Source: Candidatus Poseidoniaceae archaeon
Lineage (GTDB): Archaea > Thermoplasmatota > Poseidoniia > Poseidoniales > Poseidoniaceae
NCBI GenBank assembly: GCA_965662895.1
Contig: CBFIJH010000004.1
Location: 32,001 to 96,000 of the forward strand
Direction: 5' to 3'
Length of the DNA stretch: 64,000 nt
The notes beneath the pieces are model-generated. The model made no database searches and had not been told where the DNA came from. It saw nothing but the letters and a program-made list of their open reading frames with translations. The position numbers were made by a program, and so were the translations under genes. Shown piece by piece: positions 18,671 to 57,802 of the stretch. Within the stretch, counting starts at the first letter, position 1; every line of letters begins with the position of its first letter.

Positions 18671-19137
18671 ACACTACACTTTTGCAACGCAACCGGGAAG
18701 GTGCTGCTACTGAACTTGGATACGTCTTCACCTTCCTGCTTGGAGTTCTCCTTTTGACTGCATTCAGTTTGTGGATTTATGACATTGAAACTGCAACACG
18801 AGAGCGTTGGAATGTTGAAGCAATCGATGCAAACATGAACGATTTGTCCGCTGCAATTGAACGAACTGACATCGCAAGTCGTATCGACAACTCATCGTAC
18901 GCAGAACAGGTTTACTGGAGAGCAACAGAGGCAGATGAATCTCAGTTCACACTCGAGTTAACCGATACGTCCCTCATTTTGTACGATGATCAAGGAGAAC
19001 TGGATGCTCAACGTCCCTTGTCAGGTACTGCGTCCGCTCCTCATTCAGGCGTCATTAATCTTGCAGGTGTTGAGTCCATATGGGTGGTCTATCAAGATGG
19101 AAGCATTTCCCTTGAACTCGACCGACCAATGTTTTAG
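18667..19137 (+). CDS. Small pilin-like protein
   Basis: 'RNREGA|ATELGYVFTFLLGVLLL'; GAGGTGA SD and ATGA overlap with the upstream gene. Confidence 0.68.
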   Translation: MNTTLLQRNREGAATELGYVFTFLLGVLLLTAFSLWIYDIETATRERWNVEAIDANMNDLSAAIERTDIASRIDNSSYAEQVYWRATEADESQFTLELTDTSLILYDDQGELDAQRPLSGTASAPHSGVINLAGVESIWVVYQDGSISLELDRPMF

Positions 19138-25985: not shown

Positions 25986-26020
25986 GCTCATCCCTCTTTT
26001 AGAACCTAAATCGTGAACGA

Positions 26021-26130
26021 ATATAATACTGCGCCCCAATTGACAGTCATTATAATATCAAATCTAATCAATAATATCGCAATTTGAACAATAATTGTAT
26101 CATTAATATGGATAAATATCATATTGAACT
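26021..26130 (-). promoter_or_regulatory. AT-rich upstream region with periodic ATAATATC-like motifs
   Basis: ATAATATC at 26052 and 26071, ATAATTGT at 26091, ATAAATATC at 26112; much more AT-rich than the flanking coding DNA; lies upstream of the beta-helix/STAND genes. Confidence 0.45.
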
Positions 26131-38335: not shown

Positions 38336-38426
38336 ACACGTGGCTACAGCATTGGGCTGATAATTCAACCGCTTTGGTCTTCAGTGGACAACAGTCTTCA
38401 TGTGCTTCGTGTGCTTCGTGAGACGC

Positions 38427-42205: not shown

Positions 42206-43153
42206 TTACAGGCCAGGAGCGGCTTCACGCCATTCCTCTTCCTCGTCATCGGCATTGATGAAACGTCGACCGGCGACAGCAGCAGCCAAAGCCACCATGG
42301 AAAGTGCAGGAATGATTTCAAAGCCCGGAAGATAGACTCCACGAACATAGATTGTGATCATTTGTGATTCACGGTCACAGCCACCGTTCTTACAGGAGAA
42401 ATCCGACTCTGCGTAGAAGTCAAGCGTGTGGTACGCATCGCTCCAACCTTGTGTCTTTGGCGTGCGGACTTGAATTCGAACCTTCGCAGGAGCAACCATC
42501 GGCTCAACGTTGACCTTGCTGATTGGGATGTTGATGTTGAATCCTGCATCCTGAAGAGATTCACGGGAGTTTTCAGAGATTCCGACCTTCATGAAATCGA
42601 ATTGGTTTCCGAGGTTGTAAACTTTGAATTCAAAATCCTTGTCGGTCTTTGGCATCAGCTGAACGAACGGTTCGACCGCTTCGACTTGCAAAAGAGCGTA
42701 TTGTGTGATTGATACAATCATGTTTGCACCCGATGTTGCTTGGTTTGCAGGAGGAAGACCTTGTATTTCTTGGACACTGCCTTGGACGACAAGACTACGT
42801 GCTTGCATGGTCATGAATTGTTGTGCACGGACAACGACTTGGAAGTCTTCCTCACTGTTTGCCCCGACGTAAAGATCACCGGGCGCAGCGGCGGCAAGCC
42901 CGTCAGATGTAACAGAAAGGGCAACTTTTTCGATGTACGCCGTCGGGTTTGACGCCGTACAAGTCGTAAAGCCGACCAGTGTTGAACCAGGCTTAACATC
43001 GACCTTTATTTCTGCGGGCTGACACGTAATCGAAATCGCAGCAGTTGGTACTTGTGCCTGTGCAGGAACCGCAACGAGTAGCAAAGAAGCAAGGTAAATC
43101 ACAAGGACTGTAAAGGTACTCTTTCGTGTGGACATCGTGCTCACTAACTTCAT
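42206..43153 (-). CDS. Secreted Ig-like protein with a PGF-CTERM-like sorting signal (choice-of-anchor T-like)
   Basis: Signal peptide; C-terminal 'LPGFEIIPALSMVALAAAVAGRR'. Confidence 0.72.
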   Translation of the reverse strand: MKLVSTMSTRKSTFTVLVIYLASLLLVAVPAQAQVPTAAISITCQPAEIKVDVKPGSTLVGFTTCTASNPTAYIEKVALSVTSDGLAAAAPGDLYVGANSEEDFQVVVRAQQFMTMQARSLVVQGSVQEIQGLPPANQATSGANMIVSITQYALLQVEAVEPFVQLMPKTDKDFEFKVYNLGNQFDFMKVGISENSRESLQDAGFNINIPISKVNVEPMVAPAKVRIQVRTPKTQGWSDAYHTLDFYAESDFSCKNGGCDRESQMITIYVRGVYLPGFEIIPALSMVALAAAVAGRRFINADDEEEEWREAAPGL

Positions 43154-43213: not shown

Positions 43214-43287
43214 TGGGCCTGAAGGGATTTGAACCCTTGACCGCCCGGTTATGAGCCGGGTGCTCTAACCAACTAAGCTACAGGCCC
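43214..43287 (-). tRNA. tRNA with CAT anticodon, most likely tRNA-Ile2 (AUA-decoding) rather than Met
   Basis: GGGCCTG TAGCTTAGTTGGTTAGAGCA CCCGG-CTCATAA-CCGGG CGGTC AAGGG-TTCAAAT-CCCTT CAGGCCC A; Ile-like GGGCC acceptor; no encoded CCA. Confidence 0.93.
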
Positions 43288-43311: not shown

Positions 43312-44619
43312 TCATGAGTTTGCCGAATCAAACATTGCCAGAGAGGATTGGGAAGGTTTGGTTTTGGAACGTACCAATGCTTCGCATGCATCGCGAATTT
43401 GTTCGGGGACGAAAACAAGAATGCGTTCATCCGTTTGTGTTAGTGATCGGATGAGTGGAGAATGCTCTGCAGCATCACGGCCATCTTCGAGAATGATGCC
43501 TTGTTCATAAGGCATGTATCCACGCTTACGTATCGATGCCGTGATGAGGTCATGTTCCGCATCGAAGCCTTCCTTGCGAAGAACTTCAGCAACTTCATAT
43601 TTCACGACTTGAAACATCTCAGAGGTCAAGGATGAAATGCGCAGAGATTTGTGATAATCTCTTCGGGCTAGTAAGCGGGAAGCAAAACCGGACAACACTT
43701 GATCTTCATGGTTAGCAAAGCGTCCGATTGCAACTTTGATGTGCGAATCATGCAACGAGGCGTATTGCTCTGGAGTCAGCGATTGATTAGTTAGCATGTG
43801 CTGTATTTCTTCCTCGACCTCAAGTTGCCCAAGGGACACGAGTTCTTTTGCCCGAGAAAGCATCCGAACAAGGTAGGATTGCGTCAGCATGTTGACTTTG
43901 TGAAAGTAGACTTGATTGTACATGTGGTATCGGGTAACCAGGTAGGCCTCAATGGCCGGTAAGCCCCATGATTTAACGTACAGTCGGCCATCGTCGTTGA
44001 CGCGCAATGCCCTGATGACTCGGGCACTGTCAAACCCACCTATTTGTGCACCGGTATTGGCTTGGTCACGAATCATGTAATCCATGCGATCCACATCGAG
44101 CTGACTGCTAATAATTTCTTTGAGAAATGGAGCGATGGGTTCACCGTTGCATTCCAGTTGACCATCGAGAAGAGCAAAAAGACGTTGTTTACGTTCGACG
44201 CCGAGGACATCCTTGAGAACTTTCCCGATTTCGGAATCCTCGCTTTCAAGAAGAATCCTACCCCAGTGTTCATGAGAATGAAACGTCGCAAAAACCTCTG
44301 GTGTTTCCAAGAGGTGAGAATAGGGAGGGTGACCAATGTCGTGGAGAAGAGCACCAAGTTGTACAAGTTCTGCATCTGCATTGGATAAAAGACCCGGTTG
44401 GACTTCTTGAATCGAGGAAGTTAACTCACATGCGAGATGATATGCACCCAATGAGTGTGCGAAACGGGTGTGCGTAGCTGACGGGAAGACGAATTCGCAG
44501 GTCGAAAGTTGTTGGATGTTTCTTAATCGTTGAAACTCTTGGGTGTCAATGATGCGTGCGTGATGGGCCGGGACCAAGATGTCCCGATGAATTTCATCGC
44601 GAATCACACGGTCTCGCAT
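43312..44619 (-). CDS. HD-domain phosphohydrolase, SAMHD1/YwfO-like dNTP triphosphohydrolase family
   Basis: 'IRDEIH', 'FQRLRNIQQL', 'HTRFAHSLG', 'LLHDIGHPPYSH', 'LDVDRMDY' and 'MYNQVYFHK'. Start moved to ATG 44619. Confidence 0.9.
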   Translation of the reverse strand: MRDRVIRDEIHRDILVPAHHARIIDTQEFQRLRNIQQLSTCEFVFPSATHTRFAHSLGAYHLACELTSSIQEVQPGLLSNADAELVQLGALLHDIGHPPYSHLLETPEVFATFHSHEHWGRILLESEDSEIGKVLKDVLGVERKQRLFALLDGQLECNGEPIAPFLKEIISSQLDVDRMDYMIRDQANTGAQIGGFDSARVIRALRVNDDGRLYVKSWGLPAIEAYLVTRYHMYNQVYFHKVNMLTQSYLVRMLSRAKELVSLGQLEVEEEIQHMLTNQSLTPEQYASLHDSHIKVAIGRFANHEDQVLSGFASRLLARRDYHKSLRISSLTSEMFQVVKYEVAEVLRKEGFDAEHDLITASIRKRGYMPYEQGIILEDGRDAAEHSPLIRSLTQTDERILVFVPEQIRDACEALVRSKTKPSQSSLAMFDSANS

Positions 44620-44710
44620 AGTAAATGCTGTCAATGCATCGCATTTCAAGGCATCTCCTACCAACGAGGCCGAGGAAAAGGATATTCTCTCTAGAGGTTT
44701 ACGACGAATC

Positions 44711-46453
44711 ATGGCAGAAGGTCTCAAAGGCTTCCTTGCTCGACTGTCGACCGATGATCCCGAAACCAACGGTCCAAGATTATGGGTCATGTTTGCAATT
44801 TCCTTGTTTCTTGTTGCGACGCTCAACTGGTACGCAATGGTCCGGGAACCTTCCGTTGTCGACGTTGATGAGCTAACGGATTACGTCAATGAGGTCGTCA
44901 AGGTCGAAGGACAGCTTATCTCTTGGGTAGAAGATCCATACAATTCGGGCGACGACCGTCTCGACGCAATCATTGACGATGGCACTGGTGTCGTCGAACT
45001 TCGATGGTACCGTCCAGCGGAGCTGCCACCCATCGGCACGAATGTTACCGTCATTGGTGATGTCATCGAGTACGAAGGAAGGATGTGGCTTCAAGCGCTC
45101 GGTGCAGGAGCGATGAATTGGGACCAAGATGACATCCCAGATGCACCATTACTTTCAATTTCGGATGTTGCTCTCGAACCTGAGGCATATGCAGGTGAAG
45201 TGATTCAACTCACTGGGTTCCTTTCTGAATCAATTGCACCGGATGTGTCGTTCAACAGCGCATACCTCGGCGACCATCCTACCTACGGAAATTCAGAACA
45301 CCAGATGCACATGATCATGCATTCATCGACAGGTGAATGGATTGAATCAGGGTCGAAAGTCACCGTACAAGGAATCCTGTCTTACCAACAACGCGACCTT
45401 CGGTGGAGCATACACGTTCAAGGTCCTGAAATTCTTCTGGATCGAAATCATCCGGTTGAAATCCCATTGTTGGACTGGGCCGGCCAATCCGCATGGATGT
45501 ACCAATCTGGAAGTACCGTCGATGTCGCTGGTGTTCTTTCCATCGACGAGGGCGATTGGTGGCTAACCGGTTCTGCAGGCTCTCCGCTTTGTGTCTTGCC
45601 AAGTGACGATGATCGAGACAACGCTGAGCAATGGAGTGGACTTGCCATACAAATGCGAGGACGTTTGGTCTGGAATACGGCGATTTCTTCCTGGTGTTTG
45701 GATAAAGGTGGTTCAATGAACGAGGCATTAACTGCGACATCGAGCATCGATGACTTGTTGTTGCTTCTGAGCGCAAACCCGAGTGAAGCCCTTCAAGACT
45801 CGAACAAGCGGTATGTCGTTTCGGCCTACATGAAATACGCTCTGGAACCCAGTGTCGAAGACGAGGGCGCATACTTCGTCGATTCACCAGGCTACACACC
45901 GGGTTGGACGAGCATCGCCGTAACAATCCCGGGGCCAAGGTCTTCTTGGCTCGAAGCTGGACAGGAAATTGTCGCCAATGTTTCCGTTGCGTGGGATGAC
46001 GAAAACATGCGGGTAGAATTGCTTGTTCACGAATATTCAGAGGGACAAAAGGCCAATCCGATGAATCTTCTTTGGTCCGATGGTGCAACGAACTGGGGGT
46101 ACGACAAAAACAAGATTGTGCGAATCAATGGACTCGCTACAGAGGATAACGGAACGTGGTACCTTTCCGAGCCTGGCAGCGACAAGCGCATCCTCTTGCA
46201 GGCCGTGAACAATTGCATCGGATTGGACGAATTGCACGTTGGCACGGCGATGACATGGGAAGGTCGTCTGCGACAAGCAGAGGATGCAAATTCGTTGACA
46301 ATGGTCTACACATTAAACGACGCAGATGTCGATGATAACGACAATGATGGATTAAGCGACGCACTTGAATCAGCATTTGGTACAAGTTCCAACACGGAAG
46401 ATACGGATGGCGATGGTACGAGCGATCGTCAAGAATACATCGAACAATCCTAG
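44711..46453 (+). CDS. Membrane-anchored extracellular protein with about 5 tandem OB-fold-like repeats and C-terminal DxDxDG motifs
   Basis: TM at about aa 23-42; repeats begin 'NEVVKVEGQL', 'GEVIQLTGFL', 'GSTVDVAGVL', 'KRYVVSAYM' and 'KIVRINGLA'. Repeat 1 has the OB-like 'IIDDGTGVVEL...IGTNVTVIGDVIEYEG'. Confidence 0.7.
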   Translation: MAEGLKGFLARLSTDDPETNGPRLWVMFAISLFLVATLNWYAMVREPSVVDVDELTDYVNEVVKVEGQLISWVEDPYNSGDDRLDAIIDDGTGVVELRWYRPAELPPIGTNVTVIGDVIEYEGRMWLQALGAGAMNWDQDDIPDAPLLSISDVALEPEAYAGEVIQLTGFLSESIAPDVSFNSAYLGDHPTYGNSEHQMHMIMHSSTGEWIESGSKVTVQGILSYQQRDLRWSIHVQGPEILLDRNHPVEIPLLDWAGQSAWMYQSGSTVDVAGVLSIDEGDWWLTGSAGSPLCVLPSDDDRDNAEQWSGLAIQMRGRLVWNTAISSWCLDKGGSMNEALTATSSIDDLLLLLSANPSEALQDSNKRYVVSAYMKYALEPSVEDEGAYFVDSPGYTPGWTSIAVTIPGPRSSWLEAGQEIVANVSVAWDDENMRVELLVHEYSEGQKANPMNLLWSDGATNWGYDKNKIVRINGLATEDNGTWYLSEPGSDKRILLQAVNNCIGLDELHVGTAMTWEGRLRQAEDANSLTMVYTLNDADVDDNDNDGLSDALESAFGTSSNTEDTDGDGTSDRQEYIEQS

Positions 46454-46461
46454 GTGATTTG

Positions 46462-47964
46462 ATGATCGAAGCCTACTTCCATGAACTCTGGTGGCTCTTG
46501 GGCGCCTTGTTCTTTGGAGTCATGCTTGGTTCGCTCACAGGACTCATTCCAGGTTTTCACGTCAACAATGTTGCATTGATTCTCCTTGCTGTTTCTCCAG
46601 GATTGCTGGAATTGGGCATACCCCTATCAGCCGTCGCAGCGATTATTGTATCAACGGGAACCGTTCACACATTTTTGAATTACATTCCCTCTGCGCTCAT
46701 CGGCGCACCTGATGGAGATACAGCGTTATCGTTACTTCCAGGGCATCGGATGTTGCTTGCTGGTAATGCTGCACGTGGTGTTGCATGGTCAGCTCGAGGA
46801 TCCCAACTTGGTCTGTTTCTATCTTTGCCCCTTATCGTTGTTGCTCGAATTGCCTTCGGCCCTGAGCTCAATTGGTACGACGGACTTCGAGACTGGTTGC
46901 CCGTTATTCTTCTCGTGATATCCCTTCTGCTTCTCGCAACCGAAACCACCCGTCTTGATTGGCCGAAATGGGTACAAAAGGTAACGGGAAAGCGTCTCGG
47001 AAAGGACAGTCGGCTTGCTGGTTTCTTTGCTGCAACCGTCTTCTTCTTGCTTGCTGGATTGTACGGATGGGCTGTGTTCGAACTCCCGGTCGATAGCCCA
47101 GTAGGTATGCCATCGCCTTCCTTGTTGCTTCCGAGTTTAGCGGGTTTGTTTGGTATCGCGAACCTTCTCGACATCTATGCGACCACCAGCCATCTCCCTC
47201 CACAAAAAGAGAACTGGGATTTGCCCCCGGTTAAACCGCTCATTGCGCCGTGTTTCTGGTCAGCCGTTGCCGGTGCAAGTATGGGTGTATTGCCCGGTAT
47301 GACCGCATCCCAAGCAACCGTTCTCGTCATGGGTGGCCGCAATGTTGCGGCAAAGGTGCAAGGAAAGGAAGGATACGGTATGGACTGGGAAACCCGACGC
47401 TTAACGGAACTCAGCGATGAGGAATTGTTGGAAATTGCCGTTGCAGAAGCAGAGGATGGATACGAAGGTCCGCAAACGAAGCAAGATTTGGAAGTCATTG
47501 CGATTCTTTCAGCCGTAAACACAGCTGTCACAGTCATGGTCCTTGGATTCTTGTACATCATTGGTCGATCTCGTTCTGGTGCAACACTTGCCTTGAAAAT
47601 GATGTACCCGATTGAAACGTGGAACTCAACGCAGCCCACTGCCGACTTTGTGCGACTTCTCGCTGTAACGCTTGCAGCCGGAATCATGGCGATGCCGATC
47701 ATGAAAATTGTTGGGAAAGGCATGCTCAGGCTCCATGCTGCTATTCCTTTGCAATCAATGGTCATGGGCGTCATCATTTTCGTCACAGCATTGGTATGGC
47801 TTTCGACAGGATTCGTCGGCATTGGCGTCCTCATTGTCGGAACCATTCTCGGACTTATGCCTCCACGTATCGGGATTCGACGAAGCCACGGAATGGGAAT
47901 TATCCTCGTTCCCATTATGATTTACACCTTCGCACAGATGGCAGACAGCTTCGGTTTCATCTGA
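46462..47964 (+). CDS. Archaeal TctA-family (DUF112) multi-pass permease
   Basis: 'GSLTGLIPGFHVN', 'HTFLNYIPSALIGAPDGDTALSLLPGHRMLLAG', 'LAGLFG' and C-terminal 'IRRSHGMG'; GGTGA SD before ATG 46462. Confidence 0.88.
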   Translation: MIEAYFHELWWLLGALFFGVMLGSLTGLIPGFHVNNVALILLAVSPGLLELGIPLSAVAAIIVSTGTVHTFLNYIPSALIGAPDGDTALSLLPGHRMLLAGNAARGVAWSARGSQLGLFLSLPLIVVARIAFGPELNWYDGLRDWLPVILLVISLLLLATETTRLDWPKWVQKVTGKRLGKDSRLAGFFAATVFFLLAGLYGWAVFELPVDSPVGMPSPSLLLPSLAGLFGIANLLDIYATTSHLPPQKENWDLPPVKPLIAPCFWSAVAGASMGVLPGMTASQATVLVMGGRNVAAKVQGKEGYGMDWETRRLTELSDEELLEIAVAEAEDGYEGPQTKQDLEVIAILSAVNTAVTVMVLGFLYIIGRSRSGATLALKMMYPIETWNSTQPTADFVRLLAVTLAAGIMAMPIMKIVGKGMLRLHAAIPLQSMVMGVIIFVTALVWLSTGFVGIGVLIVGTILGLMPPRIGIRRSHGMGIILVPIMIYTFAQMADSFGFI

Positions 47965-48031
47965 GAGAATGAGGATTCTCCGTACCAAAAGATATGAGGG
48001 GGAAGGCGCTGGATGGAATCAGTGATGCCTT

Positions 48032-51000
48032 ATGCGTTTTGAAACAATTTTTCTCATCAGCCTGATGTTGTTGGTACCACTTACCCCATTGGTGGAACCT
48101 GCAGAAGCAACCTCGGCTCGCGCTCAGCCTTGCGGTGGTTCAGTTTGCATCAACGAAGTCATGCCGAATCCGAACGGGTACGATGATGCAGCATGGCCAA
48201 ATGGTGAGTGGCTCGAATTGTACAACGGTGGAACATCGTCTGTCGATGTACGAAATTGGTATTTCTCAAACAAGGCTTCGAGAATACTGACGCTGAATTC
48301 GGCTTCCATCGTTGGTTACAATGCAAGCAATCCATCAACATACACAATCGCTCCAGGCGATTACATGATTGTAGCGCGAAACGCCTCAACCAATTTCTAT
48401 GTTGCGAACTCGAATGATTTCATGACGCTGTACGATTCATCAAACGGTTGGGTTGATGAAGCGACATGGAATTCAACTTCAAGTGGAGTAAGTTTGGAGG
48501 AAGATCCATCAAATGCCTACAACGATTGGATACCTACGTCCAATCCGACCCCCGGTTCTGTCAACACTGGAGGAGGCGGAGGTACCGGTGGACCAACGTA
48601 TGCACAAAGCGATGTCATCATCAACGAAGTCATGGCAGATCCATGGCCAAGTTATGACAATGCTACCTGGCCTAGTGGTGAATGGGTTGAATTGTACAAC
48701 AACGGAACCTCGGCCATCGACCTAGCCGGATACTGGTTGCAAGATGTTGCTGGAAATATGATCACGCTCAATGAAAATCACCTGATTGGCGCATCGACTG
48801 ATGCCTCTTCCTTCCTCATCCATCCTCAAGAGACACGAATCGTTGCGGTGAACTCCACCACGAACAGCGGCGTCTTGAACAACGGACAAGAAACGTTGCG
48901 GTTGTATTTGGCAAACGGAAGCATCGGCCATGAGGTTCTGTGGAGTTCGAATCAACCCGGATTTTCACTCGAAGCCTCATCGACTGGAACAATGTGGCAA
49001 TACTCGACCTACCCGACTCCAAACGCCACGAACGCACCGAAAATCGAACAAATCACCTCAGCAGGCGATGTCGTCTTGAACGAAATTTTTCCAGTCAGCA
49101 CAATGGATGGAACCGCTGCGCCTGATGGTGAATGGGTCGAATTCTACAATGGTGGTATTGTTGATGTTGATCTGTATGGATGGTCAATCATTGATGGTAT
49201 GGGGAACGTTACCTTCCTCGATCCCGGTTCAATCGTTGTCAACAGTTCTCAAGGGAGCACGATGATTCACGCCGATGAGCGACGACTCGTTGAATTCACA
49301 GGCGACACGCGTCTCTGGGACAATTACAACCATCTCGTGATTCGAGATTCAACTGGAGCGATTGTCGATATGGGACATTACACGACCAATTACGGACCAG
49401 ACATCTCGTTGTTGCGAGGACAAAATTACCATGACCCGTGGACGCCATCGATTACGCCTTCACCGGGACAACCTGAACCCACACCGACGCCGACCACTGG
49501 TGATGTCAAAATCACGGAAGTTCTACCTGACGCTGTGGGAAGTGATTCGGCGTCCTACCCGAACGGTGAGTGGATTGAAATTCGAAACATGGGCACTGAA
49601 GAAGTCGATGTTGCCGGTTGGAGGTTCTCAGCCGAAAATCGAAACCTGATTCTTCATCAATACAACATGCCATCAAAATCGGACACTGTCCTCCAACCCG
49701 GAGAAACCGCACTAATCGCTCTCAATGGCACCTCCCAATTCTATCTCAAACATACAACACCTGACCAAATTTTCCTTAACGATGGCAACGGAGTGGTCGT
49801 CCACAGCGCTCAGTGGACACACACGCTCGAAGGTGGCTCTCTCATCAACAACACTGAATCTCATGCGGGTGCAGGGCCCAATGGAGCCAATGCACCCTCT
49901 TCATCAACAACTTGGGGTGTAGACGATTGGATCAACAGCGCTTGGGCAACTCCGGGAGAAGAAAACCCGAAATGGCCTGAATACACTGAAAGCGAGAATG
50001 TTTTGGTAACCGAGATCGCCACATCCTGTGACCTTCCGACATTCCAGCCAGCAGCTGATTGGATTGAGGTATACAATGACGGAGAATCCGAAGTCAATCT
50101 CAGTCGCTGGATTCTCCAAACCGACTACAGTTCCAATCCTCTCATGGGGCGTCAATTCATTGATGCAAGCATGGTTTGGGATTCAACATCCACGGATGTC
50201 CTCTTGCAACCTATGGAACGAATGGTTGTCGAACTTGAACACGATATTTTCGGACCTGATTTGGACGATGTCAGCGCGATGAATCTCCTCAATCCTGACG
50301 GTGACCTCGTTCTCACGATAGCACCCCCTGTTTCGCATCTGAGTACAACTTGCGCGACGTATGGATACAACTCGACCAATGCTGAATGGCTGGAGTTCCT
50401 GTGGCCAACTCCGGGCTCGCCTGAGCCAGATGCGACAATGATGGCTTCGCTTGATGACATCAAATTTAGTTCCATTATGTGGGACGGTGTCTCCTCGATA
50501 TCAACCGAAATGGAATTTTTCGAATTAACGAACATCGGGACGGATACAGCCATTCTCAATGGTTGGTCAATACGTCGAATTGCTTCAGATGGCACATCGT
50601 TTGAATCGCAAATAACCAACCTCGAAATCGATGCTACCTCCTCTGTCAAGTTGTCAAATGACGTTACAGCCCTCGAGTTGTTTGAAGGCGGAGAGATTCT
50701 TGACATGAGTGCTGCCATGGAAAACCCAATCTATCTTCTCGACAGTGGAATGGCACTGCAACTGATTCATCCAACTGGAGTCGTTGCTGATACGATTGTC
50801 TACAAGAATGGGCCCGTCGAAAGTGAAGGTTGGAGTGGCGTGGCCCTCTCTGAACCTGTGAGTGGTATTGACAACCTCATCCTCTACCGAGGAGATGGTT
50901 GTGGGATCTTAACAGATACCAACCAATCCACCGATTGGCACCAACGGTGGGGACGGTTGGGTGCGAGCGATTTCTGTGCCGAAAGTGGATTCGATGATGC

Positions 51001-52921
51001 AACAACGGTGACGCCGCTAATCGCTCCCGAACACGGGCTGATGGACATTCTGAATTGGATTGATGGCGCACAATCCTCCCTTCACGTCCACCTTTACATC
51101 CTGCAATCGAGCGAAATCGCTCAAGCATTGGTCGATGCGAAGAATCGTGGAGTCGATGTCGTTGTTGTTCTCAATGAACCTGAGGATTGGTGGAATTCCA
51201 ACGATAAACAAGCACAGCAGGCGTATGCGCATTCGTTGAAACAATCGGGCATTGATGTTCATTGGTTTGGCGGCTCTGGTGACGACCCCTATCTCTACCT
51301 CCATTCAAAAGTCGCAGTGAGGGACGATTCTTCCGTGTGGATTGGTTCCGGGAACTGGAAACCATCCTCCTTGCCGTACGACGGAGATCGAGGCAATCGT
51401 GATTGGGGACTTCTGATTGAGAGCGTCCAACTTGCCAACATCGTTCGATCGAATATGGCGTACGACGAGACGTCCAATTACGTCCTCGATGTATCGTCCA
51501 CTGCCCCGACGAATTCCTATGTCATTCCCGAGGCACAAGAGATCAATCAAGCAACAGCGCAAGCCCTTACTGGGACGTTTAGCGGCCAGTTGCTGACGTG
51601 CCCGGATGACTGTGTTGAAGGTTTAACCGATCTGATTGTATCCGCTGATGACGAGATCTTGCTCTCATTGCAATACCTCGATTTGGATTGGAAATGGGGC
51701 TGGGGCGAGAATCCTTTGATTTCTGCCCTTGAACAAGCTGCAATCGATGGTGTTGCTATACGTCTCATCATCAACGGGGCTTATCTCGACGAGGACATTC
51801 AGGATGTTGTCGATCAAATCAACAACGATTGGAACATCACCAATGGTTGGGATGCATCAGCCGTCATCATGAGCGAAGATGACGATGTCATGAAGTTGCA
51901 CAACAAAGGAGCCATTGTTGATGGTGAGTCCGTTCTCATTTCAAGCATCAACTGGGGCGATTCAGCGATGGTTCGAAATCGTGAAATGGGCCTCATTGTT
52001 ACCTCATCCGAAGTCGCTGCTCCGTTCCTTGAATCGTGGTACGCTGATTGGAACCGTTTGGACAATGTCACGGATACGGACAACGATGGGATGCCAGACA
52101 TCTTTGAAGTGAACAATGGATTGAACCGGACTGTTTCGGTCCACAATGGTGTTTTGGAAGCGGACATGGACAACGATAACGATGGATTGTCCAATCTTGA
52201 TGAGTACATGCTCGGAGGTCATCCACTGAATCCTGATACGGACGGTGATTGTATTCCTGATGCTGTTGAAGTAAGTTGGGCACAAACAACCGCTCTTGAT
52301 CCAAGCGTTGAAGACGTTTCGCCAGAAGATGCAATCAATCGCGCAGATGCTGATGGTGACGGTACAAATGAGGCGGATGCATTGGGTTGTGATCTAGGTG
52401 GAATTGACCCTATTGATACAAACGACGACCAGACAAACGATACGAGCACAGATGATGACAACGATGGCGTGTTGGATGTGAATGATGAATGTCCAGATAC
52501 GCCTGCAAACACACCGACCGATGTGAGTGGTTGTTCTTCTGAACAACGCAATCAGAAAGCAGGTGATGCGGCTGGTGAGGCTGACGAAGGATTCGGAGAA
52601 AATTTCATGCTGATTCTAATGCTTGGAGGCCTACTCTTACTTATCGGGGCTGTGTACGGCATTGTTCAATCTCGCAAAGAAAATGAGGCAACTAAGGATT
52701 GGGTCACCGAACAACATATTGACGACGTTGTTGGTACGGAAGCTCAATGGGAGCAGCCTGTTCTTGATGGAAGAGGTGAAGAAACAGATTCAGGACTTGC
52801 GAAGGAACTTGATCGCTTCCCCGGTTGGACCGAGGAGATGCTGCAGCAATACTTGGACCATGGCTGGACGCTGGACCAGTTGGAGGAATACTACCAACAA
52901 CAGGTCGCAGAACAGGGATAA
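48032..52921 (+). CDS. Surface enzyme: six lamin-tail-like domains + phospholipase D-superfamily domain (2 HKD) + TSP3-like repeats + TM
   Basis: Six 'INEV..P....EW.ELYN'-type units; 'HSKVAVRD..WIGSGNW' and 'HNKGAIVD..ISSINW..NRE'; DxDxDG repeats; TM and Trp-rich tail. Confidence 0.88.
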   Translation: MRFETIFLISLMLLVPLTPLVEPAEATSARAQPCGGSVCINEVMPNPNGYDDAAWPNGEWLELYNGGTSSVDVRNWYFSNKASRILTLNSASIVGYNASNPSTYTIAPGDYMIVARNASTNFYVANSNDFMTLYDSSNGWVDEATWNSTSSGVSLEEDPSNAYNDWIPTSNPTPGSVNTGGGGGTGGPTYAQSDVIINEVMADPWPSYDNATWPSGEWVELYNNGTSAIDLAGYWLQDVAGNMITLNENHLIGASTDASSFLIHPQETRIVAVNSTTNSGVLNNGQETLRLYLANGSIGHEVLWSSNQPGFSLEASSTGTMWQYSTYPTPNATNAPKIEQITSAGDVVLNEIFPVSTMDGTAAPDGEWVEFYNGGIVDVDLYGWSIIDGMGNVTFLDPGSIVVNSSQGSTMIHADERRLVEFTGDTRLWDNYNHLVIRDSTGAIVDMGHYTTNYGPDISLLRGQNYHDPWTPSITPSPGQPEPTPTPTTGDVKITEVLPDAVGSDSASYPNGEWIEIRNMGTEEVDVAGWRFSAENRNLILHQYNMPSKSDTVLQPGETALIALNGTSQFYLKHTTPDQIFLNDGNGVVVHSAQWTHTLEGGSLINNTESHAGAGPNGANAPSSSTTWGVDDWINSAWATPGEENPKWPEYTESENVLVTEIATSCDLPTFQPAADWIEVYNDGESEVNLSRWILQTDYSSNPLMGRQFIDASMVWDSTSTDVLLQPMERMVVELEHDIFGPDLDDVSAMNLLNPDGDLVLTIAPPVSHLSTTCATYGYNSTNAEWLEFLWPTPGSPEPDATMMASLDDIKFSSIMWDGVSSISTEMEFFELTNIGTDTAILNGWSIRRIASDGTSFESQITNLEIDATSSVKLSNDVTALELFEGGEILDMSAAMENPIYLLDSGMALQLIHPTGVVADTIVYKNGPVESEGWSGVALSEPVSGIDNLILYRGDGCGILTDTNQSTDWHQRWGRLGASDFCAESGFDDATTVTPLIAPEHGLMDILNWIDGAQSSLHVHLYILQSSEIAQALVDAKNRGVDVVVVLNEPEDWWNSNDKQAQQAYAHSLKQSGIDVHWFGGSGDDPYLYLHSKVAVRDDSSVWIGSGNWKPSSLPYDGDRGNRDWGLLIESVQLANIVRSNMAYDETSNYVLDVSSTAPTNSYVIPEAQEINQATAQALTGTFSGQLLTCPDDCVEGLTDLIVSADDEILLSLQYLDLDWKWGWGENPLISALEQAAIDGVAIRLIINGAYLDEDIQDVVDQINNDWNITNGWDASAVIMSEDDDVMKLHNKGAIVDGESVLISSINWGDSAMVRNREMGLIVTSSEVAAPFLESWYADWNRLDNVTDTDNDGMPDIFEVNNGLNRTVSVHNGVLEADMDNDNDGLSNLDEYMLGGHPLNPDTDGDCIPDAVEVSWAQTTALDPSVEDVSPEDAINRADADGDGTNEADALGCDLGGIDPIDTNDDQTNDTSTDDDNDGVLDVNDECPDTPANTPTDVSGCSSEQRNQKAGDAAGEADEGFGENFMLILMLGGLLLLIGAVYGIVQSRKENEATKDWVTEQHIDDVVGTEAQWEQPVLDGRGEETDSGLAKELDRFPGWTEEMLQQYLDHGWTLDQLEEYYQQQVAEQG

Positions 52922-52961
52922 GTCGCGTAACCTTGACAAAGGACCACACCCTAGGTATTCC

Positions 52962-53702
52962 ATGGCCTACAACTCGTCGAACCCTGTCTTCCAACCAGCC
53001 TTTTGGAATTCGATTCAAGGCAATGACCGAATGACCCTTGAAGGGACACTGCAAAAAACCGGCATTTTGTTTGGTATGGCAACAATCAGTGCTGTCGGAT
53101 CGATTGCACTCGGATTCATCATGCCGTCCCTCCTTTATCCACTAATGATCTTGGGTATGTTTGGCACGATTGGCATGGGGGTATTCTTGATGTTTGCTCG
53201 CCCGGCTGAACCAACAGGATTTGTGCTTGCTTACGCAACGCTCGAAGGTCTGTTTATCGGACCTCTTACGCTCGTGTTCGAGGTGTTCTATCCAGGTATA
53301 GCGATTCAGGCGGGGCTTGCAACCTTCGGGGTTGTTGCTTCTATGCTCACCATCTACTCTCTAGGTATTCTACGTCCAACACCTACATTCAACAAGATTG
53401 TCTTCACCCTAACCGGTTCAATCATGCTGATGTACATGATTAACATATTCCTCTACTTCCTGACTCCCTGGACGATACCCTTCCTTCACTCCTCGGGACC
53501 GATTGGAATTGGGATTAGTGTATTCATCATTATCGTTGCGTCAATGATGTTGATTTCCAACTTCGGCATGATTCATGCTGGCGTTCGAATGGGGGCACCG
53601 AAGAAGCAAGAATGGTGGGGCGCTTTCGGAATCATGGTGACGGTAATTTGGTTGTATTTCGAAATGCTTCGCTTGATTGCCAAACTCCGCGACTCAAGGT
53701 GA
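52962..53702 (+). CDS. Bax inhibitor-1/YccA family membrane protein
   Basis: 'SSNPVF', 'MTLEGTLQKT', 'YATLEGLFIG', 'YPGIAIQA' and 'GAPKKQEWWGAFGIMVTVIWLYFEMLRL'. Start moved to ATG 52962. Confidence 0.9.
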   Translation: MAYNSSNPVFQPAFWNSIQGNDRMTLEGTLQKTGILFGMATISAVGSIALGFIMPSLLYPLMILGMFGTIGMGVFLMFARPAEPTGFVLAYATLEGLFIGPLTLVFEVFYPGIAIQAGLATFGVVASMLTIYSLGILRPTPTFNKIVFTLTGSIMLMYMINIFLYFLTPWTIPFLHSSGPIGIGISVFIIIVASMMLISNFGMIHAGVRMGAPKKQEWWGAFGIMVTVIWLYFEMLRLIAKLRDSR

Positions 53703-53706
53703 TACG

Positions 53707-54669
53707 TTGGCACGTCCTCTGCCCATCGCTGATCTCAATGATTTTCTATCCGGTGATGAACAACGAATTCAAGCGTTCATCCAAACGGTCGGAGATTCGC
53801 TTGCAGACATTGGGTTCTTTGCCCTGACCAATCACGGTATTGATCTTGAATTAATCGAGGCCACCTACGATGTGGCTGAATCATTCTTTTTGCTTGAGGA
53901 ATCTGTGAAGCATCAATATGCGAAACCAGAAATTTCTCACCAACGTGGTTACACTGCTTTTGGTGTTGAACATGCAAAAGACAATCCTGCTCCAGACCTC
54001 AAAGAATTCTGGCAGACTGGAAGAGGTCAGCAAGGAAGTGAAACAGATACAAAATATCCGATGAATGTCTGGCCGAACCGGCACATCCCCGGTTTCGAGG
54101 AAAAAGTTGACAACTTGTACAACCGAATGGAGGAAATCTCCAATCAATTGCTTTCCGCTTGCAGCATCTACCTTGGCAAAGCGTCCACTTGGCTTCCTTC
54201 AATGGCTGAAAGAGGGAACACAATCATGCGAATAATCCACTATCCGCCTCTTGATTCGAACACGCCTGAAGGTGCGGTTCGCTCAGCGGCTCACGAGGAC
54301 ATCAATTTCATCACCTTATTGATGACTGCAACTGCTGCAGGCCTTCAGGTCATGGATCATGATGGGACATGGATTGATGTTGTAGGAAATCATGAACAAA
54401 TCATTGTTGATTCTGGAGATATGATTCAGAATTTGACCAACGGTTTGTTCAAGTCGACGACGCATCGGGTTGTTAACCCTGGCGACCCAACACAACGACG
54501 TTTCTCGATGCCCATGTTTGTTCACCCACGAAACGAGATTGATCTGACGCCACTACCCGAATTTATCGACCGAACCAGTGGTTCGGCAGATTTCCCATCA
54601 ATTACTGCTGGTGAGTATCTTCATCAACGACTTGCTGAAATTGGATTGGTATCAATTGACGAGGGTTGA
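53707..54669 (+). CDS. 2-oxoglutarate/Fe(II) oxygenase, isopenicillin-N-synthase-like family
   Basis: 'GFFALTNHG', 'RGY', 'DLKE', 'RIIHYPP', HxD 'HED', distal His 'THRV' and RxS 'RFS'. TTG start at 53707 after a GGTGA SD. Confidence 0.9.
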   Translation: MARPLPIADLNDFLSGDEQRIQAFIQTVGDSLADIGFFALTNHGIDLELIEATYDVAESFFLLEESVKHQYAKPEISHQRGYTAFGVEHAKDNPAPDLKEFWQTGRGQQGSETDTKYPMNVWPNRHIPGFEEKVDNLYNRMEEISNQLLSACSIYLGKASTWLPSMAERGNTIMRIIHYPPLDSNTPEGAVRSAAHEDINFITLLMTATAAGLQVMDHDGTWIDVVGNHEQIIVDSGDMIQNLTNGLFKSTTHRVVNPGDPTQRRFSMPMFVHPRNEIDLTPLPEFIDRTSGSADFPSITAGEYLHQRLAEIGLVSIDEG

Positions 54670-54674
54670 AGTCA

Positions 54675-55946
54675 ATGCATATTCCAAATTTGCTTGCCAA
54701 AAAACGGGACGGGCATGGGCTCGAGCAACGAGAAATCGAGTGGTTTATCCAACATCTTCATGAGATTCCGAATGAACAAATTGGTGCATTTTTGATGGCC
54801 TGCCAAATCAATGGTTTGAATGCTGAGGAAACAACATACCTCACCAAGGCCATGCTCGACCAAGGAAAACGCCTTTCGAATCGAGACGGGGCTATCGACA
54901 AACACTCAACAGGTGGCGTTGGTGATAAAATGAGCCTCATCCTTGCTCCTGCATTGCGTGCCTGTGGAGCAATCGTGCCAATGTTGGCGGGAAGAGGATT
55001 GGCGCATACTGGAGGGACCATCGACAAACTGGAGGCGATTCCAGGCTTCAACACGGGACTAAGCATTGAACAAATGGAACACAATCCGTGTTTTATTTCG
55101 CGCCAAACCGATGAGATTGCTCCAACCGATTCCATCCTTTACGCAATTCGTGATGTTACAGCAACGGTTCCGTGTATTGGTTTGATCACTGCATCCATTC
55201 TTTCAAAGAAGGCTGCGGAAGGAATCCAAGCCCTCGTGCTCGATGTCAAATATGGCCGAGCTGCATTTATGCAACATTCAGATGATGCAAGAAAACTTGC
55301 AAAATCGATGATTCGTGTTGGCACTGAACTCGGAATTGAAGTTACGGCTCAACTTACAGAAATGGATCATCCAATCGGCAACATGCTTGGAAACAGTCAT
55401 GAAATTGTTGAATCGATTCAGTGTCTCAAAGGCCAAGGACCTGTTGATACCATGGAATTGGTGCATGCTCAAGCAAATGCATTGGGTTTTGAAGTTTCAG
55501 AAGTCATCGCAAACGGTTCAGCGCTTGAAGAATTCAGGCGAATGCTGGAACGTCAAGATGTTGACGCCCTTACCGCTCAGAAACTCATCGATGAGCCTTG
55601 GAGCGTGTTGGAGCGTGCACCCCAGCAATACGCAATACTCTCCGAAAAATCCGGATATGTAGCGGATATGGATGCCCTAGCAATCGGTCAAGTTCTTTGC
55701 GAAGCAGGCGCTGGTCGCTCGATGCAAGGTGATGACATCGACCATGGAGTAGGCATTGAAATTCATCATCGCATCGGTTCAAAGATCGAAGAAGATGATG
55801 TTATTCTAACGCTCGATGGCCCATTTGGCCTCGATGTTCACCTCCTTCAGCGATTGAAAGATTCGATTACAATCTCCGATTATCAAGTTGGTGTTGCTTC
55901 AAGGATTCTTGAAAGTCTAACAATTGACGATGGCTCAACGACTTGA
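54675..55946 (+). CDS. deoA: Thymidine/pyrimidine-nucleoside phosphorylase (bacterial type)
   Basis: 'KKRDG', 'DKHSTGGVGDK', 'GRGLAHTGGTIDKLE', 'RDVTATV', 'ASILSKK' and 'LDVKYG'; no archaeal AMP-phosphorylase N-terminal extension. Confidence 0.92.
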   Translation: MHIPNLLAKKRDGHGLEQREIEWFIQHLHEIPNEQIGAFLMACQINGLNAEETTYLTKAMLDQGKRLSNRDGAIDKHSTGGVGDKMSLILAPALRACGAIVPMLAGRGLAHTGGTIDKLEAIPGFNTGLSIEQMEHNPCFISRQTDEIAPTDSILYAIRDVTATVPCIGLITASILSKKAAEGIQALVLDVKYGRAAFMQHSDDARKLAKSMIRVGTELGIEVTAQLTEMDHPIGNMLGNSHEIVESIQCLKGQGPVDTMELVHAQANALGFEVSEVIANGSALEEFRRMLERQDVDALTAQKLIDEPWSVLERAPQQYAILSEKSGYVADMDALAIGQVLCEAGAGRSMQGDDIDHGVGIEIHHRIGSKIEEDDVILTLDGPFGLDVHLLQRLKDSITISDYQVGVASRILESLTIDDGSTT

Positions 55947-55989
55947 ACCGATGGAAGCCGTCATAAAGGAGATGTTGCTGGCCAAACTC

Positions 55990-56062
55990 GCCGATTTAGC
56001 TTAGTTGGTGGAGCGTGGGACTGTTAATCCCAAGGTCGTGGGTTCGAGCCCCACAATCGGCG
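55990..56062 (+). tRNA. tRNA-Asn(GTT)
   Basis: GCCGATT TAGCTTAGTTGGTGGAGCG TGGGA-CTGTTAA-TCCCA AGGTC GTGGG-TTCGAGC-CCCAC AATCGGC G; no CCA. Confidence 0.95.
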
Positions 56063-56095
56063 TAAATTGAACTCCAACCATAACGAGGTGAAAAC

Positions 56096-56367: not shown

Positions 56368-57315
56368 TTATTCCCACTCGATGGTTCCGGGTGGTTTGTG
56401 TGTAATATCGTACACGACTCGATTGACAGCACCCTTGACCGTGTTGGTAATACGCGTACTAATTTTCTGGAGAATATGATGTGGTATCTCTGAGTACCGT
56501 GCCGACATTCCATCCATACTTCGGACTGCTCGAACAACAATGGTTTCGCCATAGGCACGGACGTCACCATGAACACCAACGGATCGAACGGGTAACAGTG
56601 CAGCAAAATATTGCCATGGCAATTCCATTTCACCTGCTTCAGCTCCTGCTTCAAATTCTTCCTCAACAATGGCACATGCCTCTCGAACCACTTCAACACG
56701 TTCTGGCGTGAGATCACCCAATGTTCGGACAGCCAGACCTGGTCCAGGGAATGGTTGGCGCTCTGCTACGACAATATCGAGTTCTCGGGCAAGTTCTCGA
56801 ACTTCGTCTTTGTACAATTCACGAAGAGGTTCAACGACTTCAAGCGTCATATCTTCGGGCAATCCACCAACGTTGTGATGAGATTTTATCGTGTCGCGAA
56901 CACCACCCCCAGATTCAATCCAGTCAGGAGCAATTGTACCTTGAACGAGGTATTTTGCACCGCATTTTTTCTGTTCGTCTTCAAAGATACGAATGAACAA
57001 TTCACCAATGACTTTCCGCTTTTGCTCAGGTTCCGTAACGCCTTTCAATGCCTCAAAGTATCGATCTGCAGCCTTCACAGTGATCAGATTGATGCCCTGC
57101 TCGGAAAGCATCGCTTCAATTTCCTCAGTTTCATTTTTTCTCATGAAGCCAGTATCAACATACACACAGTGAAGGAGATCCCCGACTGCTTTACTGGCAA
57201 GAACTGCGGCAACTGTCGAGTCAACACCGCCTGAGCATGCAATGATTGCAACATCATCGATTGTTGCTTTCAATTGCTGAATCGATTCCTCGATAAATTC
57301 AGGCGCATCAAACAT
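56368..57315 (-). CDS. guaAB: GMP synthase subunit B (ATP pyrophosphatase)
   Basis: PP-loop 'SGGVDS', 'QGTIAPDWIES', 'IKSHHNVGGLP', 'RQPFPGPGL' and 'KPPGTIEWE'. Confidence 0.96.
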   Translation of the reverse strand: MFDAPEFIEESIQQLKATIDDVAIIACSGGVDSTVAAVLASKAVGDLLHCVYVDTGFMRKNETEEIEAMLSEQGINLITVKAADRYFEALKGVTEPEQKRKVIGELFIRIFEDEQKKCGAKYLVQGTIAPDWIESGGGVRDTIKSHHNVGGLPEDMTLEVVEPLRELYKDEVRELARELDIVVAERQPFPGPGLAVRTLGDLTPERVEVVREACAIVEEEFEAGAEAGEMELPWQYFAALLPVRSVGVHGDVRAYGETIVVRAVRSMDGMSARYSEIPHHILQKISTRITNTVKGAVNRVVYDITHKPPGTIEWE

Positions 57316-57316
57316 C

Positions 57317-57802
57317 TCAAGCCCTGCCGTTGACTTCTCGATCCATTTGCAGTACGCGCTCTACTTGATCGAGTTTGTCTTGAACGAGGCGTTGTGCCAT
57401 TTCGTCATCGACGAGTGCCAGCATTTGGACAGCAAGATGTCCTGCATTGTCACCACGGTCGACACCGACGGTTGCAGCCGGAACGCCAGGTGGTAGCTGG
57501 ACGATGGAAAGGAGCGAATCAAACGGTACACGGCCTCCACACGGAACACCGATAACGGGCTTGGTGGTTAAAGCAGCGACTGCTCCGGGAAGAGCGGCTG
57601 CGAGGCCTGCCATTGCGATGAAGACTTTGCATCCATCCCCCTCTGCTTTGTGGATGATTTCCTCAACGAATTTAGGAGAGCGGTGGGCAGATGCTACGCG
57701 CAGTTGGTAATTTACTCCGAATTTGTCAAGCACTTTTGTGCACTTTTCAGCAATCGGCATGTCAGACTTCGAACCCAGTAAGATAGATACATCCATGACC
57801 AT
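57317..57802 (-). CDS. purE: N5-CAIR mutase / AIR carboxylase family
   Basis: 'LGSKSD', 'SAHRSP', 'PVIGVP' and 'SIVQLPPGVP'. Confidence 0.93.
   Translation of the reverse strand: MVMDVSILLGSKSDMPIAEKCTKVLDKFGVNYQLRVASAHRSPKFVEEIIHKAEGDGCKVFIAMAGLAAALPGAVAALTTKPVIGVPCGGRVPFDSLLSIVQLPPGVPAATVGVDRGDNAGHLAVQMLALVDDEMAQRLVQDKLDQVERVLQMDREVNGRA

Follow-up and report, generated by a model that had tools for sequence, protein, structure and literature searches.

A four-gene cluster kept across the order Poseidoniales suggests that Marine Group II archaea may capture, cut, import and consume seawater DNA

The gene cluster described here lies in the genome of an uncultured planktonic archaeon of the order Poseidoniales, also known as Marine Group II (MGII). 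We analysed a window of 64,000 nucleotides (positions 32,001 to 96,000 of contig CBFIJH010000004.1) from a 1.86-Mb, 92%-complete assembly of Candidatus Poseidoniaceae archaeon (GCA_965662895.1). The cluster encodes, among other proteins, a membrane-anchored OB-fold protein, a TctA-family membrane protein, a giant surface protein with LTD and PLD domains (LTD-PLD), and a nucleoside phosphorylase of the DeoA family (Table 1). One of the closest described systems is found in methanogens. In Methanococcus maripaludis, in-frame deletion of either of two adjacent genes, one for an OB protein with a single transmembrane segment and one for a TctA-like protein, abolishes natural transformation, and the deletions were complemented (PMC10133366). 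The same study reports that a TctA homologue is essential for transformation in Methanoculleus thermophilus as well, that a membrane-bound thermonuclease is also required in M. maripaludis, and proposes the TctA-like protein as an archaeal DNA transporter (PMC10133366, Mol Genet Genomics 2023). That study describes the DNA transporter of competent archaea as unknown, and these archaea as lacking any identified ComEC homologue.

Our cluster resembles the genes MMJJ_13020 (OB), MMJJ_13030 (TctA-like) and MMJJ_16440 (thermonuclease) of M. maripaludis JJ, as reported in PMC10133366, in having the gene for a single-transmembrane OB protein beside a TctA gene, and a membrane-attached nuclease. The OB gene of the window is upstream of TctA and co-directional with it, an order that we measured in other archaea rather than took from PMC10133366. 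The Methanococcus OB protein is short, whereas that of the window has about five OB folds and Ca-binding-type repeats in 580 amino acids. The Methanococcus nuclease is a thermonuclease, whereas the putative nuclease of the window is a PLD-type giant with six LTDs whose gene belongs to the cluster itself, as does that of a nucleoside phosphorylase. Equivalence of the two OB and TctA pairs would rest on family, architecture and gene order rather than on direct alignment.

Nucleases with LTDs provide a further comparison. The Shewanella oneidensis protein ExeM (PMC6085458) and the Haloferax volcanii protein Hvo_1477 (cited in PMC5118699) are secreted or membrane-bound enzymes that combine an LTD with a nuclease domain, and each has been connected with the metabolism of extracellular DNA. 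OB-type regions occur in ExeM too, but it has a single LTD, which is dispensable for extracellular DNA degradation (PMC6085458), and its catalytic domain is of the endonuclease/exonuclease/phosphatase type, not PLD. The catalytic domain of Hvo_1477 is that of a thermonuclease, according to the account in PMC5118699. In the window, unlike in ExeM, the OB folds are on a separate protein that is paired with a transporter, and there are six LTDs. The 'DNA-degradation loci' of marine-sediment Candidatus Izemoplasmatales are a precedent for an LTD nuclease read as a tool for DNA foraging (Nat Microbiol 2021, PMC8289736); those loci are bacterial, use other transporter and nuclease families and are supported by stable-isotope probing, whereas the MGII case is known from genes.

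Among PLD nucleases, the HKD motifs are shared with Nuc (1byr), NucT (6ehi), MitoPLD/Zucchini (4ggj) and PLD3/PLD4 (8v07, 9vbh), the last of which have two HKD lobes per chain and act on single-stranded DNA (ssDNA). Identity in structural alignments is 15-18%, and the architecture in the window, with six LTDs, TSP3 repeats, a C-terminal anchor and optional PhoX, is unlike any of them. In bacterial competence, ComEA is the surface DNA receptor, ComEC the polytopic channel and EndA the membrane nuclease. The logic of the MGII cluster is the same, but the channel is not homologous (TctA family versus Competence domain), and matches to DUF4131 among OB partners of TctA are below the Pfam cut-off. 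Family PF01970 is shared with the bacterial TctABC transporter, but in the window an OB protein takes the partner position and the cluster has no TctB or TctC gene, and the substrate of TctA here probably differs from that of TctABC.

Our preferred reading, to which we assign a probability of roughly 55%, is that the genes for the OB protein, TctA, LTD-PLD and DeoA form a module that acquires extracellular nucleic acid by means of a surface nuclease and an OB/TctA uptake system and is coupled to the phosphorolysis of nucleosides, with a gain of phosphorus, carbon and nitrogen as its probable purpose. An earlier, sequence-only reading of this DNA had described a larger locus, with seven genes between two outward-pointing tRNAs and tight spacing on the + strand. 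ARAGORN, ORF (open reading frame) calling, Pfam and NCBIfam place all seven genes, and both tRNAs, as that reading had described. The gaps from OB through TctA, LTD-PLD and BI-1 to the 2OG oxygenase are 5, 67, 40 and 4 bp, and the 2OG and DeoA genes overlap by 4 bp. The same reading had taken all seven genes, namely a divergent HD hydrolase and six + strand genes, as one pathway locus. This stands for OB, TctA, LTD-PLD and DeoA, which are linked across three families, and falls for BI-1, 2OG and HD, which are not part of the core.

We compared the locus across related genomes. A DeoA query matched 36 of 41 genomes, and neighbourhoods were taken for 27 of the 35 matches outside the window's own genome; the eight others (G001, G004, G010, G014, G019, G021, G023 and G032) were left out by eye and are mostly contig-end matches. 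The 27 loci consist of 14 from the window's genus and 13 from two other families of the order (f2 and f3; the window's own family is f1). Additional f1 loci came from genera g12 and g13 (six loci) and g14 (two). In the 14 same-genus loci everything is conserved, flanks included, which carries little information, and the seven-gene arrangement is found family-wide in f1 (the g12, g13 and g14 loci). The f2 and f3 loci are more informative. LTD-PLD adjoins DeoA in all 13 (with the 2OG gene between them in three), TctA is missing from one and the OB gene from two, in each case at a contig end. The flank genes downstream of the cluster in the window (dn1-dn3) are kept in 0/13 of these loci, and of the upstream genes up2 in 1/13 and up1 in 6/13. 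The four genes keep their order and strand across families while the flanks change. Insertions occur between TctA and PLD: a thiolase gene in f2, and a gene for a CD36-family protein of about 900 amino acids in several f3 genera.

The four genes are also lost together. Two f3 genomes from different genera (G030, 94% complete, and G035, 92% complete) have no match for DeoA, the OB profile, TctA or the PLD region, and yet the syntenic locus is intact in both, running from up1 through a tRNA with anticodon CAT to the CD36-like gene; G035 also has the acyltransferase gene that follows DeoA in sister genera. Because the core genes are gone on both sides of a retained CD36-like gene, the pattern is hard to explain as one accidental deletion, and the joint loss argues for mutual dependence among the four genes, with the CD36-like gene independent of them. 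The conserved unit is therefore OB, TctA, LTD-PLD and DeoA; BI-1, 2OG and HD are lineage-specific neighbours that are not required. Conservation of the neighbourhood in relatives, which the sequence-only reading had put forward as a check, is borne out for this core, which is kept in every sufficiently long f2 or f3 locus and jointly missing in two genera. The chance juxtaposition that the same reading had allowed for does not agree with a core kept across families and lost jointly. We rejected the CD36-like gene as a part of the module, as it stays when the four core genes are lost. The CD36-like archaeal proteins (about 900-960 amino acids; L017:8519-11269, L022:10169-13036, L023-L026, L127 and L128) have a short above-threshold match to the eukaryotic CD36 scavenger-receptor family.

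The cluster is transcribed in a relative. Supplementary file 3 of PMC9723583 lists five consecutive genes of one related metagenome-assembled genome (MAG), annotated deoA, LTD-PhoX-PLD, CD36, TctA and OB (genes 295-299), and for each of them normalised transcript coverage is above zero in one and the same set of coastal samples. Coverage in four consecutive columns is 0.08-0.51 for deoA, 0.15-0.48 for LTD-PhoX-PLD, 0.88-1.34 for CD36, which is the highest of the five, 0.09-0.34 for TctA and 0.22-0.56 for OB. The co-expression expected by the sequence-only reading is borne out to the extent that all cluster genes are transcribed; their co-variation is matched by that of the flanking genes. No public RNA sequencing run containing this DNA was listed; the entries listed were four contig-level ones from one study.

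The OB protein was identified through its predicted structure. The AlphaFold model (22-sequence alignment; mean pLDDT 79.9) shows a transmembrane helix near the N-terminus (residues 17-44) and, after it, about five beta-barrels. Among PDB structures, all those that Foldseek ranks at the top are tandem-OB nucleic-acid binders: the p204 HIN domain with double-stranded DNA (4.8e-11), RADX, RPA70, CST, POT1, TEBP and LEF-3, with low TM-scores, as expected of a flexible multi-domain chain. The model and these matches bear out the OB-fold assignment of the sequence-only reading and extend it to a membrane-anchored chain of about five OB folds. The C-terminus has TSP3-type Ca-binding repeats (a weak Pfam match). 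From the modelled topology, the protein is most likely displayed outside the cell, where it is a candidate extracellular nucleic-acid receptor and partner of TctA. All 472 homologues matched are named 'hypothetical protein', and a phylum-wide search with the OB profile returned strong matches solely from Poseidoniales.

Weak partial matches to the OB profile were found outside the order in eight genomes, and all five examined lie immediately upstream of TctA. In one of these cases the protein has 212 amino acids, a transmembrane helix and two OB folds, and the stop codon of its gene overlaps the start of TctA. In the window too the OB gene adjoins TctA on the same strand. TctA itself is a single-copy gene in this genome (PF01970, 3.4e-45, 154.9 bits against a cut-off of 28.9) and encodes about ten hydrophobic segments. 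A scan of species-representative genomes with a TctA alignment gave the best 80 TctA loci, from Thermoplasmatota and from records titled Methanocellales, Methanosarcinales, Alkanophaga, Methanomassiliicoccales, Woesearchaeota, Pacearchaeota and Nanoarchaeota; none is a Methanococcus record. Enough upstream DNA was available in 77, and in 70 an ORF on the strand of TctA runs up to the start of that gene. The OB profile matches the ORF directly upstream of TctA in 53 of the 77 loci (52 of the 70 ORFs plus the correct frame of L059) and none of the 659 other ORFs of at least 100 amino acids in the same loci. Pfam OB-type families match 41 of the 70 upstream ORFs, mostly below cut-off, and the matches above cut-off include one Woesearchaeota and one Methanosarcinales record. 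The pairing of OB and TctA is ancient, is conserved across several archaeal phyla and is not a local accident.

Many of the short partners of TctA with a transmembrane helix and an OB fold have weak, sub-threshold matches to DUF4131, the best with 29.3 bits (cut-off 31.6; for example L054:2317-2997). We take DUF4131 to be the N-terminal transmembrane and OB module of bacterial ComEC. No TctB or TctC family is found among the cluster genes here or in relatives, and no genome-wide search for them was made. According to PMC10133366, clear homologues of TctB and TctC are lacking in archaea. In one Thermoplasmata MAG (L117:943-2913), TctA is directly preceded by an ORF for a 656-amino-acid protein with an endonuclease/exonuclease/phosphatase domain, and no OB protein is recognisable; this is a second, independent link between a nuclease and TctA. 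The first 420 residues of that protein carry no family assignment.

We predict that LTD-PLD is a type-I tethered surface enzyme, based on its order of parts: a signal peptide, six LTDs, two HKD motifs, TSP3-like DxDxDG repeats, a C-terminal transmembrane helix and a tail of about 80 residues. It is a candidate nuclease. Both HKD motifs (H-x-K-x4-D) are intact, and they are invariant in 16 orthologues. The only sequence matches in the PDB are Nuc, NucT and MitoPLD. The model of the catalytic region (pLDDT 87.8) is two-lobed, and its best Foldseek matches are the ssDNA exonucleases PLD3 and PLD4 (3e-21; TM-score 0.62-0.67 on the target). The LTD-PLD proteins of four f3 loci (L022-L025, from genomes G039, G029, G038 and G036) carry an additional PhoX alkaline-phosphatase domain, which separates the LTDs from the PLD lobes; the window's genome encodes PhoX separately. 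The fusion places a diesterase-type and a monoesterase-type domain on one surface polypeptide.

The last core gene encodes a full-length match to NF004490 (405.2 bits, cut-off 269) with the three Pfam domains in order. The models for specificity do not reach their cut-offs (TIGR02643, T_phosphoryl, 335.9 against 570.7; TIGR02644, Y_phosphoryl, 399.1, just below 409.05). DeoA is 43-47% identical between the window's genus and g12/g13, within f1, which is as low as between families. In the same comparison, TctA is 80-86% and the GMP-synthase subunit 88-94% identical. This suggests unusually fast evolution of DeoA or its replacement in one lineage.

The sequence-only reading had proposed a complete salvage pathway and named deoB and deoC as genes to be sought elsewhere in the genome. 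Neither was found in the 92%-complete genome: for deoB, nothing matched TIGR01696 (the archaeal PGM-type mutase was not searched for), and of the two proteins that PF01791 matches, one is a DhnA-type aldolase and the other is of the ADH-synthase type, neither being a DeoC-type aldolase. Thymidine kinase was not found in the genome, no uracil phosphoribosyltransferase (UPRTase) scored above cut-off, and Amidohydro_2 (PF04909), the family of isoorotate decarboxylase, was not found. A protein of the PNP/UDP family is present. The proposal of a complete pathway is therefore not supported. We rejected the canonical deo catabolic pathway, as deoB and deoC matches are missing from the 92%-complete genome. 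We also rejected a fungal-type salvage route of thymine 7-hydroxylase and isoorotate decarboxylase, as PF04909 was not found and thymine 7-hydroxylase is only the third PDB match of the 2OG protein.

The 2OG oxygenase is an optional member of the cluster. Its first PDB matches are two uncharacterised bacterial proteins (3oox among them, 5.6e-54), and the third, a thymine dioxygenase (5c3p, 1.5e-31), is the best of the characterised ones. In f1, and in three f3 loci (L019-L021, those counted above), the gene stands between PLD and DeoA. BI-1 is found in f1 genera g1, g12, g13 and g14, and we rejected it as a part of the module as it is absent from all 13 loci outside f1. The HD protein (PF01966 and PF19276) has its best PDB match in 2o6i (3.2e-45), with SAMHD1 at about 1e-25, and the NCBIfam dGTPase models are below cut-off. 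Its gene adjoins the cluster in f1 and in one f2 locus (L015), is about 5.5 kb away in two f3 loci and was not seen in the other f3 loci. The sequence-only reading had given this protein the task of dephosphorylating nucleotides. We set this aside, as the SAMHD1/EF1143 type, to which the best matches assign it, acts on deoxynucleoside triphosphates and not on the monophosphates that come from DNA, and as it is only a loose neighbour.

In the module as we read it, the surface-tethered LTD-PLD giant would cut DNA, perhaps also RNA, outside the cell, and in some genera the PhoX domain on it would release phosphate. The OB chain would hold the strand or oligonucleotides at the membrane. The TctA-like protein, with OB as its obligate partner, would then move the material across, as has been proposed for the Methanococcus pair (PMC10133366). 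Inside the cell, DeoA would phosphorolyse pyrimidine (deoxy)nucleosides to base and pentose-1-phosphate. The presence of DeoA suggests that DNA is used mainly as food, for phosphorus, nitrogen and carbon, with transformation as a possible by-product. We infer what each protein acts on, which way transport runs and what the module does for the cell. The outline had been drawn in the sequence-only reading, with DNA bound by OB, cut by PLD and imported by TctA, and thymidine split by DeoA. That reading had the LTDs bind DNA as well, a role that is putative at most here. The outline fits the linked core, the folds and the methanogen genetics; it fits less well in its completeness and with the acidity of the OB protein.

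Several observations weigh against this reading, and there are three other explanations. The OB, TctA and nuclease genes could be a transformation machine and nothing else, with DeoA as a long-standing neighbour or a means of strand disposal and with DNA of no great significance as a nutrient. The sole experimental data for such a pair concern transformation, not nutrition (PMC10133366), and the routes that would use the products of DeoA (deoB, DeoC, thymidine kinase and UPRTase) were not found in the genome. We consider this explanation improbable: DeoA comes after the nuclease gene in 13/13 f2 and f3 loci, with frames that overlap or nearly touch, and is lost jointly with it; the PhoX fusion in four loci points to phosphate harvest rather than DNA preservation; and a surface enzyme with exonuclease-like relatives would destroy DNA. 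Scavenging of organophosphates or lipids, which we rate as just as improbable, would have PLD act on phospholipid head groups or other diesters, PhoX free the phosphate, and TctA with OB import a small organic anion, the nucleic-acid flavour being coincidental. By fold, lipid-acting PLDs match nearly as well as nucleases (7e0m 2e-20 and PLD1/2 about 1e-18, against 3e-21 for PLD3), the NCBIfam nuclease models NucT and DrmC are far below their cut-offs for LTD-PLD, and the PLD fold taken alone is compatible with lipid substrates; the sequence matches in the PDB, on the other hand, are nucleases only. The f3 cluster contains a CD36-family gene and is followed by an acyltransferase gene, and the f2 cluster contains a thiolase gene, and MGII are described as thought to metabolise lipids and peptides (PMC9723583). 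Against this, the CD36-like gene stays after core loss and is thus functionally separable, the thiolase gene is found in one family only, and DeoA, the most constant partner of the PLD gene, is a nucleoside enzyme. The known substrates of TctA are small organic anions, with carboxylates carried by the bacterial protein, as cited in PMC10133366, and the methanogen phenotype could be indirect; even so, it is DNA uptake to which an OB and TctA pair has been tied genetically (PMC10133366). The acidity of the OB ectodomains also speaks for this explanation. The protein of the window is strongly acidic (pI 4.05, 31 K+R against 96 D+E; each OB domain pI 4.0-5.1), and the ectodomains of 55 TctA-linked OB proteins in other archaea have a median pI of 4.88, with three above 7. 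This argues against simple electrostatic DNA binding, and binding would need aromatic stacking or bridging by Ca or Mg.

The cluster might instead be frozen synteny, with unrelated surface, transport and nucleoside genes left unseparated in small, slowly rearranging genomes. The whole f1 neighbourhood is conserved, flanks included, and related genomes are non-independent samples, so only the cross-family comparisons carry weight; BI-1, thiolase and CD36-like genes have been inserted without harm. We find this explanation the least probable of the three. Across families the flanks change while the core keeps its order and strand, the four genes are jointly missing around a retained gene, their spacing is tight or overlapping, and OB and TctA are linked across several archaeal phyla. 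Two further points count against an uptake module. Outside the order, the OB and TctA pair lies beside a nuclease in just one of the 77 loci (L117). In the PMC9723583 table, the flanking genes have the same transcript pattern across samples as the cluster, so the table demonstrates transcription, and the co-variation reflects population abundance, not co-regulation. Of the explanations considered, we prefer the nucleic-acid uptake module.

More tentatively, at less than even odds, the reading can be taken further: the OB and TctA-like pair may be the long-sought archaeal DNA translocator, an analogue of ComEA/ComEC on a secondary-transporter scaffold. In MGII it would have joined a tethered PLD-type nuclease, which some genera fuse to PhoX, and a nucleoside phosphorylase in forming a dedicated 'DNA-eating' operon, making MGII significant consumers of dissolved DNA and its phosphorus.

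Table 1. Features of the cluster and its immediate borders, with positions counted from the first nucleotide of the window. Genes for tRNA were called with ARAGORN, families with Pfam and NCBIfam, models were made with AlphaFold and folds compared with Foldseek against the PDB.
Feature	Position	Strand	Basis and remarks
Choice-of-anchor T family surface protein ('up1')	42206..43153	-	NF041740, 294 bits (cut-off 70)
tRNA with anticodon CAT, probably tRNA-Ile2	43214..43287	-	ARAGORN; points away from the cluster
SAMHD1/EF1143-type HD dNTP triphosphohydrolase	43312..44619	-	Pfam HD and HD_assoc_2; ORF to 44826, likely start ATG 44619
Membrane-anchored OB protein, 580 aa	44711..46453	+	Model and Foldseek; only Pfam match is a weak TSP3 repeat
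TctA-family polytopic membrane protein	46459..47964	+	PF01970
LTD-PLD surface protein, 1629 aa	48032..52921	+	Six LTD and two PLDc_2 domains
BaxI_1 (BI-1/YccA-like) membrane protein	52962..53702	+	Pfam 3.2e-61; ORF 52623-53702, real start ATG 52962
2OG/Fe(II) oxygenase	53707..54669	+	DIOX_N and 2OG-FeII_Oxy; ORF 53677-54669, likely start TTG 53707
Thymidine / pyrimidine-nucleoside phosphorylase (DeoA family)	54666..55946	+	NF004490
tRNA-Asn(GTT)	55989..56063	+	ARAGORN; points away from the cluster

The sequence-only reading had called the locus tRNA-bracketed, but the two tRNA genes do not delimit the cluster. The tRNA with anticodon CAT is found at the same place in f2 and f3 loci and in the cluster-less genomes, and is syntenic across the order. 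The tRNA-Asn gene occurs in all eight loci of the genus that were scanned and, among ten loci of other families, only in L019, so it is mostly a feature of the genus. We rejected a tRNA-bounded genomic island in view of a flat GC content (0.47-0.50), the order-wide presence of the cluster, and the retention of the syntenic tRNA after cluster loss. The identity of this tRNA as tRNA-Ile2, also claimed earlier, is plausible but its sequence alone cannot prove it. ARAGORN labels it as Met, but in the D arm and the anticodon arm it is almost the same as the tRNA-Ile(GAT) of the genome. The other CAT tRNA of the assembly (on contig C6) is initiator-like (A1, GGG/CCC anticodon stem), and there is no third. 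ARAGORN found 36 tRNA genes in the 92%-complete assembly, two of them with CAT, and an elongator tRNA-Met was not detected among them. The up1 gene is upstream of this tRNA and the OB gene in the six f2 and f3 loci that keep it, and it is kept in both cluster-less genomes; it is probably a conserved upstream neighbour outside the module.

Other genes of the window were annotated as well. A gene of the GMP-synthase C-terminal/ATP-pyrophosphatase type (56368-57315) recurs beside TctA or the cluster in unrelated Thermoplasmata loci (L108:1972-2937 and L116:790-1734). A purD gene lies upstream of the cluster (37073-38368) and a purE gene downstream (57317-57802). There are four giant ORFs on the minus strand, at 3198-8585, 8635-14376, 21663-26039 and 27401-36949 (1795, 1913, 1458 and 3182 amino acids). 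Pfam assigns no family to the first two. The third contains a Big_7 domain and a beta-helix, and the fourth an STT3 oligosaccharyltransferase region and a CarboxypepD_reg domain; an S8 subtilase gene lies among them (26140-27345). In the minus-strand ORF at 540-1571, domains of a pyroglutamyl peptidase (Peptidase_C15) and of a NUDIX hydrolase are fused, and 19134-21647, also on the minus strand, encodes an 837-amino-acid STAND-type NTPase (AAA_16 / nSTAND6) with TPR repeats.

We found no description of the cluster in MGII or Poseidoniales in the literature, a search that left aside subscription journals and bioRxiv supplements and in which some papers were judged by title and abstract. The main texts of two MGII transcriptome and genome papers (PMC9723583 and PMC6461757) make no mention of nucleases, nucleosides or thymidine, and PMC12242099 uses a Poseidoniales genome in a PLD phylogeny. 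In the literature on TctA with natural transformation or the OB fold in archaea, only the Methanococcus study PMC10133366 and its preprint are relevant. The cluster combines known kinds of parts: archaeal OB and TctA transformation genes, LTD nucleases and bacterial DNA-degradation loci.

The archaeal DNA-transporter candidate, an OB and TctA-like pair, rests so far on phenotypes in two methanogens (PMC10133366). That a pair of this kind occurs across the order next to a surface enzyme of nuclease type and a nucleoside phosphorylase lends independent support, from genomic context, to a role in nucleic-acid handling, and the cluster supplies a concrete, testable parts list. MGII count among the surface ocean's most abundant archaea (PMC6461757). 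If these archaea harvest dissolved DNA, their assumed niche would change and a large sink would be added for a major pool of organic phosphorus; the PhoX fusion in some genera makes the phosphorus motive directly testable.

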